Of a stretch of 32,062 nt of DNA, positions 1,071 through 31,839 are shown one piece after another. Under the pieces are notes generated by a model. The model was given only the letters and a program-made list of their open reading frames with translations. It had not been told where the DNA came from and searched no databases. Each line of letters opens with the position of its first letter. The stretch's first letter is position 1. The DNA comes from Gammaproteobacteria bacterium (lineage in GTDB: Bacteria > Desulfobacterota > Desulfobacteria > Desulfobacterales > JAFDCJ01): assembly GCA_049190255.1 (NCBI GenBank), contig JAIVWA010000001.1, positions 520 to 32,581 on the forward strand. Direction: 5' to 3'. A program made the translations under genes and the position numbers.

Positions 1071-1200
1071 GAAAAGACGATAATCGCCTGACAGAATAAG
1101 CTAAATATCGTTCGACAGAATAAGCTAATAATGATACAACTAAATAAGCTAAATTTGGAACTGCATGAAAAGCTAAAATTTATACGGCGTAATAAGCTAA
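1071..1200 (+). repeat. Direct-repeat array with a 10-bp core AATAAGCTAA at exact 24-bp period
   Basis: Cores start at 1095, 1119, 1143, 1167 (GAAAAGCTAA) and 1191, with a degenerate one at 1071 (GAAAAGACGA); 14-bp variable spacers. Confidence 0.9.
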
Positions 1201-1216
1201 CGAAAGCACGAGAGCT

Positions 1217-2770
1217 ATGGCAAGCCCACATGGAAAACTGGCCGAATCCCTTGAGGCCCTGAGAGCACTGCAGGAGCGCGGTGTCGTCGCCGTGCGTTCA
1301 ACTAATCTGACCCGAACGCATCGGGAACGCCTGGTCAAAAACGGCTTCTTGCAGGAGGTCATGAAGGGCTGGTACATCCCTGCTCGCTCGGACCAGGCCG
1401 CGGGAGAGAGCACGGCATGGTATGCATCGTTCTGGGGATTCTGTTCAGCCTATTTACAGCAGCGTTTTGGGACAAATTGGAGCCTCTCGCCTGAACAGTC
1501 ACTATTGCTGCATGCCGGGAACATGATGGTTCCACGCCAATTGCTTGTACGCTCACCGAAGGCCCGCAACAAGATCACAACGCTGCCGTATGATACGTCG
1601 TTATTCGATACGCGTGCGGCCCTGCCAGAAGCTGGACAAATTGTAGAGAAGGACGGCTTGCGGCTGTTCTCTATACTTGCGGGCCTGGTGAGCTGCGGAT
1701 CTGAATTCTTTCGACATAACGCGACGGACGCACGCGCGGCTCTGGCCATGGTGCGCGATGCATCTGATGTGCTTGCATTGCTCCTTGAGGGTGGACGCAC
1801 CACGGTTGCCGGCCGACTCGCAGGTGCGTTCCGAAATATCGGACGTAACCATATTGCCGACGATATCGTCAAAACAATGCAAGCCGCAGACTACGACATT
1901 CGTGAAAAAGATCCATTCGATGACACAACAAATTTGATCCTGCCGGCGCGCGAACAATCGCCATATGTGAACCGTATTTGCCTAATGTGGCAGCTGATGC
2001 GAGAACCAATCCTCAAACAATTTCCGGCCGCCCCGGACCGGCCCGCCGACATCGCGGCCTATCTCAAGGCAGCCGATGACCTTTACGTTACGGACGCTTA
2101 TCACTCGTTGTCCATTGAAGGTTACCGGGTCAGCCCTGAGCTGATCGAACGGGTCCGAAGTGGCGAGTGGGATCCGGATGAAAACAAGGATGACCGCGAA
2201 CACCGTAATGCCTTAGCAGCACGTGGATACTGGCAGGCCTATCGGTCGGTCCGCCAAAGCTTACGCAAGGTGATAGAGGGCGATAACCCCGGAGCAGTTG
2301 GCGATGATGATCACCGTGACTGGTACCGTGAAATGTTTGGGCCGAGCGTAACGGCCGGCCTCTTACGGACGGCGGACCTCGCCGGTTACCGCAACGACCA
2401 GGTATATATCCGCCGCTCCATGCATGTGCCACCGCGCTATGAAGCTGTGCGGGACTGCATGCCGGCATTCTTTGATTTGTTGAGAGAAGAGCCGGAACCA
2501 TCGGTGCGTGTTGTTCTGGGACACTTCGTGTTCGTATATATCCATCCGTACATGGATGGCAATGGCCGTATGGGACGATTTCTTATGAACGTAATGCTCG
2601 CAGCGGGCGGGTATCCTTGGACCGTTGTTCCACTGGAAAAGCGAGACGACTATATGGCTGTATTGGAAAGCGCGAGCGTGGAACAGGACATCACGCCATT
2701 TGCGTCGTTTCTTGGGTGCCTTGTTTCCGACAGCTTAGAAGGTAAGCCATCACCACAGGTACCTTATTGA
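1217..2770 (+). CDS. Fic family protein with long N-terminal extension (AbiEi-like, inferred)
   Basis: Fic motif HPYMDGNGRMGR; inhibitory-type motif SLSIEG upstream; 517 aa. Confidence 0.9.
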   Translation: MASPHGKLAESLEALRALQERGVVAVRSTNLTRTHRERLVKNGFLQEVMKGWYIPARSDQAAGESTAWYASFWGFCSAYLQQRFGTNWSLSPEQSLLLHAGNMMVPRQLLVRSPKARNKITTLPYDTSLFDTRAALPEAGQIVEKDGLRLFSILAGLVSCGSEFFRHNATDARAALAMVRDASDVLALLLEGGRTTVAGRLAGAFRNIGRNHIADDIVKTMQAADYDIREKDPFDDTTNLILPAREQSPYVNRICLMWQLMREPILKQFPAAPDRPADIAAYLKAADDLYVTDAYHSLSIEGYRVSPELIERVRSGEWDPDENKDDREHRNALAARGYWQAYRSVRQSLRKVIEGDNPGAVGDDDHRDWYREMFGPSVTAGLLRTADLAGYRNDQVYIRRSMHVPPRYEAVRDCMPAFFDLLREEPEPSVRVVLGHFVFVYIHPYMDGNGRMGRFLMNVMLAAGGYPWTVVPLEKRDDYMAVLESASVEQDITPFASFLGCLVSDSLEGKPSPQVPY

Positions 2771-4281: not shown

Positions 4282-4283
4282 GA

Positions 4284-4311
4284 GCTGATAGCTCATGGCT
4301 CATAGCTGATA
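4284..4311. repeat. Heptamer tandem tract (GCTSATR x4)
   Basis: gctgata gctcatg gctcata gctgata, starting 3 nt after the permease stop. Confidence 0.8.
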
Positions 4312-4475
4312 GTCTCGTAAAAAGTCAGAAACGCGACCTTTTTACGAGAGTGTTTAGTATTTGGTGTTTAGTGTTTAGTGATATAATAATTTAATATGGC
4401 ACACAATATGTCATGCCAAACACCAAACACGAAACACCAAACACATGATGAATTCGACTTTTTACGAATTCATCA
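4307..4475. mobile_element. MITE/REP-like element with 20-bp imperfect terminal inverted repeats
   Basis: TGATAGTCTCGTAAAAAGTC (4307-4326) vs GACTTTTTACGAATTCATCA (4456-4475), 16/20 complementary; internal inverted heptamer tracts at 4350-4377 and 4417-4444. Confidence 0.65.
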
Positions 4476-6142: not shown

Positions 6143-6397
6143 ATGTTAACCAAAATCTATGCAGACTATACGGTCAGTATTACCGAGCTGAAAAAAAACC
6201 CGCAGGCACTCATTGACAATGCCCACGGTGAGGCGATTGCACTGCTCAATCGCAACAAGCCGACAGCTTATATCATCCCGGCCGCAACCTACGAGAGGCT
6301 GATGGACCTGGCAGAAGATATCGAGCTCGGCGGAATCATTGAAGACCGCAAAGTTGAAAAGGCAGATGCCGTTGAGGTTAGCCTCGATGAGCTATAA
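6143..6397 (+). CDS. Type II antitoxin, Phd/YefM family (StbD-like)
   Basis: SITELKKNP...AIALLNRNKPTAYIIPA...EVSLDEL; overlaps the toxin start. Confidence 0.9.
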   Translation: MLTKIYADYTVSITELKKNPQALIDNAHGEAIALLNRNKPTAYIIPAATYERLMDLAEDIELGGIIEDRKVEKADAVEVSLDEL

Positions 6398-6683
6398 GCT
6401 GAAATTCCTGCCGAGCGCCCTGAAAGAATGGCGTAAACTTGCTCCGGAAATAAGAGAGAAATTCAAGAAGCAATTGGGCCGCAGGCTGGAAAATCCTCAT
6501 ATCGATAGCACAAAAATCAGGGGCTATAAGCATCACTACAAGATCAAGCTGCGGTCAGCGGGCTATCGGCTCGTATACGAGGTCGAAGAAAAAGAGATAA
6601 CCGTTTACGTGATATGCGTTGGTAGAAGAGACACGATTTATAAAATACTTAAAAAGCGAAAGTCAAAAATAGACAATAATTAA
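6387..6683 (+). CDS. Type II toxin, RelE/StbE family
   Basis: MSYKLKFLPSALKEWRKL...YKIKLRSAGYRLVYEV...VICVGRRD; ATG 6387 lies inside the antitoxin 3' end. Confidence 0.9.
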   Translation: MSYKLKFLPSALKEWRKLAPEIREKFKKQLGRRLENPHIDSTKIRGYKHHYKIKLRSAGYRLVYEVEEKEITVYVICVGRRDTIYKILKKRKSKIDNN

Positions 6684-28233: not shown

Positions 28234-28355
28234 AGGCGTAGGGCTCAAGGCATAAGGCGCAAGGCAAATGAATTCTGTCATCTGTTTTCAGGATGCTGGA
28301 TACTGGGGACTTGTCACTGGTCGCTGGTCACTGGTTGCTTGTCACTGGTCTCTGG
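28234..28355. repeat. Adjacent heptamer tracts (AGGCGCA-type x4 and CTGGTCA-type x6)
   Basis: aggcgta gggctca aggcata aggcgca (28234-28261); cttgtca ctggtcg ctggtca ctggttg cttgtca ctggtct (28310-28351). Confidence 0.8.
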
Positions 28356-29661: not shown

Positions 29662-31839
29662 TTAAGTCTCTTTAAATGATTTGTTAAGATCCTTCTGGAT
29701 ATTAACCCATGAGTCTTCATTCAAAACTCTGATTATGGAGGTCAGAATTCTCTTGTTGCTGTCCAGCAGAACGGCATTCGACTTTTTCTTTAAAATAGAA
29801 TAGTAGTGCCGGCCGGCCTCGGTTTCAGAAAATGATAGATATTCTTCCAACTCGGACTCGGTTAATCCACGATAGGTATAGACAAATCCGGCAAATACAT
29901 ACTGGGCCGCCAATATATCCAGATACGGATCGATTTCGGTTTCAAATTTCTTAATAATCTCATCAATCGACGCCTGATCCACTTTATCCGAATCTGACAG
30001 AACCAGGTCCAGGATTTGATTCTGGACGATGAGATTGGTTTGCAATTCAACCATCGCTTCAGTGGAATAAGTCGCCTCATCCAGCCTCGAAAAGAGATTC
30101 GCCCTGGATGTGTTCTGGTATCTGGTAAGTCTGAAAGCGAGACGCATGGTGTTCACATACTCTTTTTTTTCGGAATAAGAACTGTATTCTATTTCGGCTA
30201 TTTTTTTCCCCAGGGATGTTTTATACCATTTCAAAACTTGTTCCAGTTCAGGTATCGTTAAGCTTGCAGCGATATTCTTCTGGATATACTCTTTTATTCT
30301 TTGCGGATTCGTTGCCAGCCTGATAACGTCTTTGAACCGCAATAATTTTTCATCAAATGACGGGATTTTTGAAGTGTCGGCTTCTTTATATTTCTCTTCA
30401 AATGACACCAATGCCATTTCGGTTAAACTATTGGCCTGTTTCGCTATACCGGCTTCTTTTATAATTTCAGCAGCCATCTTGGCTTTTAAAATCTCATTGG
30501 TCGGTTGGGAGGGTTTGTCTTTTCCTTTTTTAACCTCCGATTTCTCGTGTTTGATATGCTTGATAATTTCTTTTTGAAGCATCGCGAGATTTTCATTTTT
30601 ATCTTCACTGACCTTCTCGGTCCAGGCCGCGAGGTCTAAAGGTCGTCTATCCTCCATGGCAAGAATATTTTCGGCCGGGATGGCGAAATTCAAATTCTGC
30701 CCGTTTACTATCTGAAAAAATGCCACGCCGACAACTTTCCCATTCATATCAATTACCGGACTGCCGCTCGATCCTCTTGAAATCGGTGCCGTCATCTGAA
30801 AAGCGGTCCCTCTGTCCGGAATTTCCCGAATAGCCGAAATTATTCCATCGCTGACTGTCCGCCCCAGGCCCATGGGTGTGCCGATCACGATAATTTTATC
30901 GGCAATGTTGGGTTGATTCGGATCAATCTCCAGCCATGCTCCGGGCTTAAGCGTACCACCCGGAACGTTTATTACCAGCTTGATAAGATCTTGTTTTTCG
31001 TTTGCAGCTAAAACGAAATCCACTTTGTATTCTATATCGTTGTGGAATTTAATAACAGCGGAATAAGCGCCCTTGAGGACATGGTAATTTGTAATAAAAT
31101 CGCCATCCTGGCTGATAAAAAAACCGCTTCCCTGCTTGAATAGATTATTTCCGCTGTCATAGGTTAATACCGTGGCAACTGCCGGATTCACCCTATTAAA
31201 CAGGTCTCCGATACTGACATCCGAATTATCTGCAGCTGAATCATTCTCAGTCTCTGCAGAAGTGACGACTGCAGGCTGAGCAACTGCTGAAAGTTCGATA
31301 GTATCCGGTGAAGTTTCGGCCTCCGAAGGCGGATCGTCGTTCTTGGCCGTGACCTGAAAGTTGTATTTCTGCATGAGAAAAAATACAGCTCCGCCACAAA
31401 TCAGCAGTATTAAAACTGCTAAACTGCCGATAAGCAAAAAATTCTTTTTCTTACCCGTTTTTGCTGTTTGAGTTTCGGGTGCATTATTTGCCGGTGTTCT
31501 ATTGGCGGGGACTGATTTTTTGTCGGGTGCTTTTTTGACAGGCACTGCTTTTCGTTCTGACTTTTTGCTGACGGGGGCTGCTGTTGGTTCTGACTTTTTG
31601 CTGACGGGGGCTGCTGTTGGTTCTGACTTTTTGCTGACGGGCGCTGCTTTTTTTGAGGGCCTGGCCGCAGGTTTGGGGCTTACCTTTTGGGGCGCGGTGG
31701 GTGCCGGCGGCCTTGCAACAAAAAACGGTTTTTTACATTTTTTGCAGTTTGCTTCACATCCCTTTTCAGGAATTTTAGAGATGTCAACTTTAAATATGGT
31801 TTTACATGCCGGGCATTGGATATCTGTTATGCTGTCCAA
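29662..31839 (-). CDS. Zn-ribbon, linker, TM, trypsin-like serine protease and helical (DUF2059-like) protein
   Basis: CPAC...CKKC; TM FLLIGSLAVLILLICGGAVFFLM; GSGFFI, TNYHVL, DL, ISRGSSGSP; repeated ELE...F/WY.T..G motifs; TTG start after AAGGAG. Confidence 0.85.
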   Translation of the reverse strand: MDSITDIQCPACKTIFKVDISKIPEKGCEANCKKCKKPFFVARPPAPTAPQKVSPKPAARPSKKAAPVSKKSEPTAAPVSKKSEPTAAPVSKKSERKAVPVKKAPDKKSVPANRTPANNAPETQTAKTGKKKNFLLIGSLAVLILLICGGAVFFLMQKYNFQVTAKNDDPPSEAETSPDTIELSAVAQPAVVTSAETENDSAADNSDVSIGDLFNRVNPAVATVLTYDSGNNLFKQGSGFFISQDGDFITNYHVLKGAYSAVIKFHNDIEYKVDFVLAANEKQDLIKLVINVPGGTLKPGAWLEIDPNQPNIADKIIVIGTPMGLGRTVSDGIISAIREIPDRGTAFQMTAPISRGSSGSPVIDMNGKVVGVAFFQIVNGQNLNFAIPAENILAMEDRRPLDLAAWTEKVSEDKNENLAMLQKEIIKHIKHEKSEVKKGKDKPSQPTNEILKAKMAAEIIKEAGIAKQANSLTEMALVSFEEKYKEADTSKIPSFDEKLLRFKDVIRLATNPQRIKEYIQKNIAASLTIPELEQVLKWYKTSLGKKIAEIEYSSYSEKKEYVNTMRLAFRLTRYQNTSRANLFSRLDEATYSTEAMVELQTNLIVQNQILDLVLSDSDKVDQASIDEIIKKFETEIDPYLDILAAQYVFAGFVYTYRGLTESELEEYLSFSETEAGRHYYSILKKKSNAVLLDSNKRILTSIIRVLNEDSWVNIQKDLNKSFKET
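31555..31648. repeat. 33-bp coding tandem repeat (about 2.8 copies)
   Basis: TTCTGACTTTTTGCTGACGGGGGCTGCTGTTGG at 31555, 31588 and partially 31621; encodes AAPVSKKSEPT units. Confidence 0.9.

Follow-up and report, generated by a model that had tools for sequence, protein, structure and literature searches.

What is a run of short repeats, spaced evenly at 24 bp, doing directly upstream of a gene for a Fic protein? A sequence-only reading of the window (the whole stretch of 32,062 nucleotides analysed here) had offered two answers, a cooperative operator for the protein's N-terminal domain or a mini-array processed into 24-nt RNAs. Our analysis indicates that the array is probably a tandem operator: the AbiEi-like part of the Fic protein encoded next to it would bind the units, thereby shielding the predicted promoter and shutting down transcription of its own gene. 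The direct basis for this consists of the 24-bp spacing, the two-part unit, its register with promoter-like boxes, the stand-alone cassette and the covariation between array bases and protein residues.

The array, its unit and its family

The cores lie exactly where that reading had placed them, with AATAAGCTAA at 1095, 1119, 1143 and 1191 and GAAAAGCTAA at 1167; the four spacers it had quoted are likewise exact, and 16 nt separate the end of the last core (1200) from the ATG at 1217. A period of 24 gave the top five-unit periodicity score in the window (48 of 50, at 1095), whereas 30 block-shuffled versions of the window reached 36-39. The degenerate core at 1071 scores below the calling level when taken alone, but it is a decayed unit, because close relatives (L001, L083, L084, L088 and L092) keep an intact sixth core, GAAAAGCTAA, in the same place. 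The claim that did not survive is that the spacers are free in sequence: over 287 units they contain a second conserved block, R-Y-A-C-R-R-C-A, in which one column is C in 94%, and particular spacers hold promoter-like boxes. The 24-bp unit is thus bipartite, with ~17 bits, and the spacers are constrained. Its best phase, which was set from first-unit versus after-last-core scores, is CAN-AATAA[G/C/A]CTAA-N5-RYACRR, and the unit matrix and phase scores together define sites 1 to 5 as follows.

1071..1080, + strand: decayed sixth core and left edge of the cassette (intact in relatives; its first base is absent from the empty site of the same-genus genome G002)
1092..1115, + strand: site 1, in the phase CAN-AATAAGCTAA-N5-RYACRR
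1116..1139, + strand: site 2
1140..1163, + strand: site 3
1164..1187, + strand: site 4, with the GAAAAGCTAA core
1188..1211, + strand: site 5, ending 5 nt 5' of the start codon
1071..2805, no strand: cassette of array and gene, where G002 has 140 unrelated bases instead (from comparison with that genome)

A wider regulon was looked for and set aside: a scan of the window's own genome with the unit found no second array, and 5 of its 21 single units of at least 15 bits are those within the array. The single unit at 1019-1042 of the window is host sequence that is also present in G002, which lacks the gene.

Array and gene form a stand-alone cassette. G002 lacks positions 1071-2805, whereas both flanks are 94-95% identical; the left boundary of the cassette coincides with the first core, and neither terminal repeats nor a target duplication were seen at the empty site. 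Other relatives have different genes or nothing at this site, and two bear the cassette elsewhere. The Fic gene's neighbours in the window are ZraP-like and ABC transporter genes, and no neighbour is conserved across loci, the largest cluster comprising 5 of 290 flanking ORFs.

The surroundings of the cassette have features of their own. The gap that separates the ZraP-like gene from the ABC transporter operon is a variable slot (1071-2805; L187, L193-L198), filled, depending on the relative, by the Fic cassette, by heptamer repeats or by genes of a flavin-reductase-like kind. On the minus strand, positions 874-889 carry a sigma54-type promoter of the divergent ZraP-like gene (TGGCAC-N5-TTG, which we take to be the sigma54 consensus). 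Two TAAAAAGTATCCA-like direct repeats at 1010-1023 and 1052-1065, spaced 42 bp apart, are probably enhancer sites of the ZraP-like gene. Same-genus genomes retain both the promoter and the repeats, whether or not they carry the Fic cassette. Further along, the window holds an ordinary Phd/YefM-ParE/RelE type II toxin-antitoxin pair (6143-6683), as well as intergenic heptamer repeats that recur across the genus and a 33-bp tandem repeat (116-147, 4283-4444, 28309-28355 and 31545-31648).

Among 300 further genomes from the phylum, two had the Fic gene, one of them as a fragment, and the family as a whole spans phyla, with at least 589 GTDB loci, 582 metagenome loci and 79 plasmid records. Of the at least 589 relatives from the GTDB scan, 80 were kept, 75 of them with the gene start. 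The upstream regions of homologues, which had been proposed as a check, bore out a fixed-period array common to the family: of the periods 12-45, 24 scored highest for 75 of the 76 upstream regions (window included) and for two of 62 control regions taken further upstream. Another 100 loci, set apart as a held-out group (80 from metagenomes, 3 viral and 17 from plasmids; 96 usable), behaved alike, with period 24 best in 92 of 96 and period 23 in two. Arrays contain 2-6 units, and members below about 50% identity have arrays with their own, different consensus and periods of 23-24 bp. Divergent members on Rhizobiaceae plasmids (L174, L176 and L177) and at L173, L175, L178 and L179 have longer arrays and other cores; for example, Ri-type plasmids have six to seven array units adjoining traH/traM, and the array of a Vibrio IncC plasmid has a period of 23 bp. 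In two further proteins (P0125 and P0074), the N-terminal domain is joined to pentapeptide repeats or forms part of a 560-aa protein that Pfam Fic does not match, architectures that may be assembly artefacts.

A predicted AbiEi-like domain fused to a class II Fic domain

The 517-aa protein has a Pfam Fic match at residues 389-461, and its N-terminal half is without annotation. Its parts are as follows.

1217..2770, + strand: gene for the AbiEi-like/Fic fusion protein (Pfam Fic and structure predictions)
1217..1387, + strand: predicted winged helix-turn-helix, residues ~1-57 (model and structure match)
1412..1891, + strand: predicted AbiEi-type C-terminal domain, residues ~66-225 (model and structure matches)
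1565..1615, + strand: putative specificity hairpin, residues 117-133, with R117, K119 and D131 (covariation; strands E119-123 and E127-133)
2105..2122, + strand: inhibitory-helix motif SLSIEG, with E301 (158 of 164 full-length members)
2543..2578, + strand: Fic catalytic motif HPYMDGNGRMGR, with H443 (motif search and Pfam Fic)

The catalytic motif HxFx(D/E)(A/G)N(G/K)R appears as HPYMDGNGR, with Y at the F position, and Pfam Fic matched all 54 members examined. N-terminal of it, the class II helix motif (S/T)xxxE(G/N) is present as SLSIEG in the same 158 of 164 proteins; class II Fic proteins are those whose inhibitory motif precedes the catalytic motif (PMC10628234). By these motifs the protein fits class II and is predicted to be self-inhibited. 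The full-length model has a pLDDT of 90.5, and the solved Fic fold nearest to its C-terminal half is that of FICD (Z 23.2). At four loci (L100, L116, L144 and L168), a second, shorter Fic-like gene adjoins the AbiEi-Fic gene.

A model of the N-terminal 236 residues (pLDDT 93.9) had as its best match among 48,161 chains Rv2827c (1ZEL; Z 10.2, rmsd 4.6, 219 aligned), with AbiEi second (6Y8Q; Z 8.1, rmsd 5.0, 178 aligned), and the same two led in Foldseek (E 1.6e-4 and 6.3e-4, respectively). The resemblance is distant (Z 8-10, rmsd 4.6-5.0, identity 12-14%): Pfam AbiEi models matched none of 54 members, and the N-terminal profile had no significant match among PDB sequences. From the model, we predict that the N-terminal half is an antitoxin domain of the AbiEi/Rv2827c type, consisting of a winged helix-turn-helix (wHTH) and a C-terminal domain (CTD).

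AbiEi and Rv2827c are described as monomers on 23-bp inverted repeats over their own promoters, with the CTD required (PMC3985639 and PMC7319586). As with Streptococcus agalactiae AbiEi and Rv2827c (MenA4), whose structures 6Y8Q and 1ZEL are the ones matched, the fold predicted here is wHTH plus CTD, and as with their operators, the site is about one monomer footprint and covers the predicted promoter of its own gene. Unlike in AbiE systems, however, there are two to six direct, head-to-tail repeats in place of inverted pairs, and the domain is fused to Fic, whereas the gene for AbiEi has a DUF1814 nucleotidyltransferase gene as its partner, of which the surroundings here show no sign. A likeness of the AbiE operator repeat IR2 to our unit was considered and rejected, since on the unit matrix it does not rise above shuffles (23-31% of which reach IR2).

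Helicobacter ICEs can carry a separate AbiEi-like gene with a fic gene behind it (PMC12443045), and CccR of Yersinia pseudotuberculosis is a single-gene Fic protein that represses its own promoter (PMC9755527). CccR and SoFic-type Fic-wHTH proteins resemble the present one in combining Fic and a DNA-binding domain in one gene, but theirs is a C-terminal HTH that acts as a dimer on a palindromic operator, and ours is an N-terminal AbiEi-like module. The protein is not SoFic itself: the NCBIfam score is 29.7 against a cut-off of 550, with matches restricted to the Fic domain. FICD/HYPE and CbFic2 share the class II layout, and the activity of CbFic2 depends on DNA binding (PMC10628234); a sequence-specific operator array and an AbiEi-like domain set the present protein apart from both. 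Among the papers listed by full-text searches of the open literature, none was apparent that describes the AbiEi-Fic fusion, the 24-bp array or the phage copies discussed below. The family is unannotated; its presumed autoregulation is AbiEi-like, yet it is not an AbiE system.

Covariation, promoter register and the readings of the array

One core position, column 15, is uniform within arrays and varies between them (0.93 versus 0.32 when shuffled), and its base follows the protein. In the first set, Arg117 accompanied all 22 arrays with G15 and none of 52 others, making residue 117 the top covarying protein column; Asn119 accompanied all 29 A15 arrays, and Tyr131 all seven arrays with A at column 16. 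After arrays with fewer than two called units, short proteins and sequences more than 90% identical were dropped (170 loci reduced to 124), R117 and G15 agreed in 123 of 124 non-redundant loci, and in 64 of 65 held-out loci, with a phi of 0.98 for column 117 versus 0.69 for the next best protein column. On a tree (FastTree) built without residues 105-140, R117 and G15 each change 18-19 times, and independent pairs all point in the same direction, both for R117/G15 (8 pairs, p=0.008) and for N119/A15 (7 pairs, p=0.016); the first 74 proteins alone gave five pairs, below significance (p=0.0625). A rule of three classes failed at 6 of 65 held-out loci, four of which belong to a further T class, with P117/G119/T131 and T15/A16. 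Residues 117-133 span a predicted beta-hairpin in the N-terminal model, and contacts of the kinds Arg-G, Asn-A and Asp-C are common in protein-DNA recognition. An arms race read from fast evolution of residue 117 was dropped, its change rate being only at the 78th percentile of columns. For the AbiE site, Dy et al. ascribed the conserved portion to the wHTH, and DNA-binding residues are mentioned in both AbiEi domains (bioRxiv 10.64898/2026.01.19.700257); here, the covarying residues 117 and 119 lie in the CTD.

The units are also predicted to overlie promoter-like boxes of the gene, in register with the array.

1112..1117, + strand: predicted sigma70 -35 box TCGACA (at a phase shared by 28 of 49 arrays in one set and 48 of 84 in another)
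1132..1140, + strand: predicted extended -10 box, with TG at 1132-1133 and TACAAC at 1135-1140, 17 nt 3' of the -35 box

In 28 of the 49 non-Bacteroidota arrays, T[CT]GAC occurs at a fixed phase in exactly one unit; no array has it in two (5 expected under independence). The unit that follows has TG.TA in 16 of 28 cases, compared with 4 of 120 other units. Held-out arrays repeated this, with one T[CT]GAC unit in 47 and two in a single array (9 expected), and TG.TA in 30 of 48 following units versus 14 of 207 others. Fisher p values for such counts are overstated because the arrays compared are related. In Bacteroidota-like loci, TAnnTTTG, presumably the Bacteroidota -7 box, overlaps the start of the first unit in 21 of 27. 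The predicted promoter thus lies inside the array in most non-Bacteroidota and 5' of it in Bacteroidota. A strict consensus promoter scan of the window did not call the array promoter, the support for which is the counts in related sequences.

Because the repeats overlie promoter-like sequence and covary with two residues, the array likely consists of the Fic protein's own docking sites, and the cooperative operator that had been proposed, together with the core/protein covariation that had been asked of it, is strongly supported by the AbiEi-like fold, the promoter-like boxes and residues 117/119. Each 24-bp unit would bind one protomer through both its wHTH and the CTD hairpin, with residues 117, 119 and 131 of the hairpin reading the variable core base and the winged helix another part of the unit. 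Protomers would align head to tail along the array and cover the predicted promoter, resulting in autorepression. The Fic domain is presumably an AMPylase/deAMPylase restrained by E301, and binding to neighbouring sites may, in addition, keep the enzyme inactive, because the activities of CbFic2 and FICD shift with dimerisation.

Other readings of the array are far less probable. Type III toxin-antitoxin arrays (ToxIN, AbiQ) also place short repeats directly 5' of a toxin gene, and the array might be transcribed and cut into 24-nt RNAs that act as an antitoxin by binding the protein. Covariation alone cannot separate DNA from RNA binding, the Bacteroidota promoter predicted 5' of the array would have it transcribed whole, and against mononucleotide shuffles the arrays have a slight folding advantage (mean z -0.53, with 13% of 150 below -2). 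The array of the window, however, folds no better than dinucleotide shuffles (z 0.23), none of 160 arrays has a terminator-like gap before the gene, column 15 has no pairing partner (best minimum complementarity 0.33), and most non-Bacteroidota arrays have promoter-like boxes within their units. Unlike ToxIN/AbiQ repeats, then, these units are degenerate, unstructured, without a terminator and hold promoter-like boxes; moreover, the Fic domain carries its own inhibitory motif, and AbiEi homologues bind DNA (PMC3985639). RNA contigs of relatives cover the gene and not the array, though contigs cannot reveal starts or absence. We consider the RNA reading very improbable.

Scarcely better placed is a role chiefly as a DNA scaffold that sets the Fic oligomeric state, and so the balance of AMPylation and deAMPylation, which would be compatible with repression. 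The strict 24-bp period, arrays of two to six units and phage copies of mostly exactly two would suit it, as would the deAMPylation proposed for CbFic2 on DNA-induced dimerisation and that of FICD on dimerisation (PMC10628234), but repression alone explains a register with two different promoter grammars. An iteron or transposon-end array, or one encoding a repeat peptide of 8 residues, we regard as the least credible of all. It would draw on the cassette boundary at the first core, the one frame open across the window's array and the 79 plasmid records, but there is neither a conserved neighbour nor a terminal repeat or target duplication at the empty site; and for coding, that frame shows 57 stops versus 67 expected, 39 of 76 arrays are interrupted, the distance to the ATG is even modulo 3, and CTA is fixed in 239 of 287 units.

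Two-unit copies in phage genomes

Searches of viral sequence with a two-unit pattern matched 32 IMG/VR stretches, with no family gene within 1.8 kb of them. Pooled searches gave 45 viral lineages, one of which is a true Fic array, leaving 44. Exactly two cores are present in 39 of the 45, in contexts that include tRNA clusters, the gap 5' of a terminase gene and gene junctions. The N-terminal profile found no match in 30 of these viral records (6 at least 90% complete), and protein relatives were absent from 50,697 annotated phage records and numbered three in IMG/VR. We infer that the two-unit copies are sites for the same AbiEi-Fic proteins; the benefit to the phage would most likely be to bind and hold the protein, as a decoy, and an anti-phage or cassette-maintenance role of AbiEi-Fic is therefore likely. 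In this indirect way the copies speak for the candidate defence module of the sequence-only reading.

Alternatively, the copies could be captured promoter fragments, chance tandem duplications or the sites of an unrecognised protein, unrelated to neutralising Fic, an explanation that we think possible but on balance doubtful. It gains from the 16 of 45 lineages in which the copy lies inside open frames of at least 100 codons, several of these probably chance K/A-rich repeats, from a few near-perfect duplications, from the promoter boxes retained at L337, and from the unexceptional change rate of residue 117; most viral records, moreover, are fragments, and the match in the cultured phage CRP-143 is weak. 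Against it stand the geometry and sequence of the copies: with either gap left free over seven lengths, native spacing occurred in 22 of 22 matches, and a looser pattern over periods 22-34 placed 29 of 50 loci (25 distinct) at 24, compared with 1-4 distinct matches at any other period. The reversed pattern had no match, versus the 32 of the pattern itself; positions outside the search pattern fit the unit matrix at period 24 and not at others; both cores have the same class base in 43 of 45 lineages, with G, C and A classes all represented; and only 2 of 45 retain the -35 box. Among 802 bacterial genomes, a control of low power, there was no orphan two-unit copy, the sole match being a Fic array.

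To return to the decoy reading, in its fuller form AbiEi-Fic would be a defence of a single gene, with the operator DNA itself as antitoxin: protein bound head to tail on the array would be repressed and enzymatically off, to be freed when infection removes or blocks the operator, and the two-unit phage copies would be decoys for it. We put this forward tentatively, as a somewhat unlikely possibility. Diverse lytic phages would have independently acquired two-unit operators of the G, C and A classes, and a recognition code of one to three residues would let hosts switch class. The retention of pairs by phages fits "bound means off" better than titration of a repressor, because mere titration would raise Fic levels. 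That decoy DNA represents a new kind of counter-defence is, by the same token, a speculative proposal.

Several consequences follow. The family would offer a predictable protein-DNA code across phyla and a set of orthogonal repressor/operator pairs, as well as a first residue-level handle on how the AbiEi CTD may read DNA, and a defined DNA ligand gives a direct way to study how class II Fic enzymes escape self-inhibition. The phage copies suggest a counter-defence that is neither protein nor RNA, and searching phage genomes for operators of such genes would be a route to defence-gene discovery.

Individual phage sites, of two or three units, illustrate the range of contexts. One (L338) lies between two genes that we take to be tail-tube-like; another (L337) follows the terminator of what is presumably a capsid-like gene, its promoter boxes intact; a third (L249) is 5' of a terminase gene; and a lineage of 181-256 kb contigs (L347) matches a Bacteroidales-type array at 39 of 43. 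In annotated phages, blastn with operator pairs gave one weak intergenic candidate, and the cultured Roseobacter phage CRP-143 has a weak G-type two-unit match in its non-coding right end (L330:1496-1543; 10.0 and 8.9 bits).
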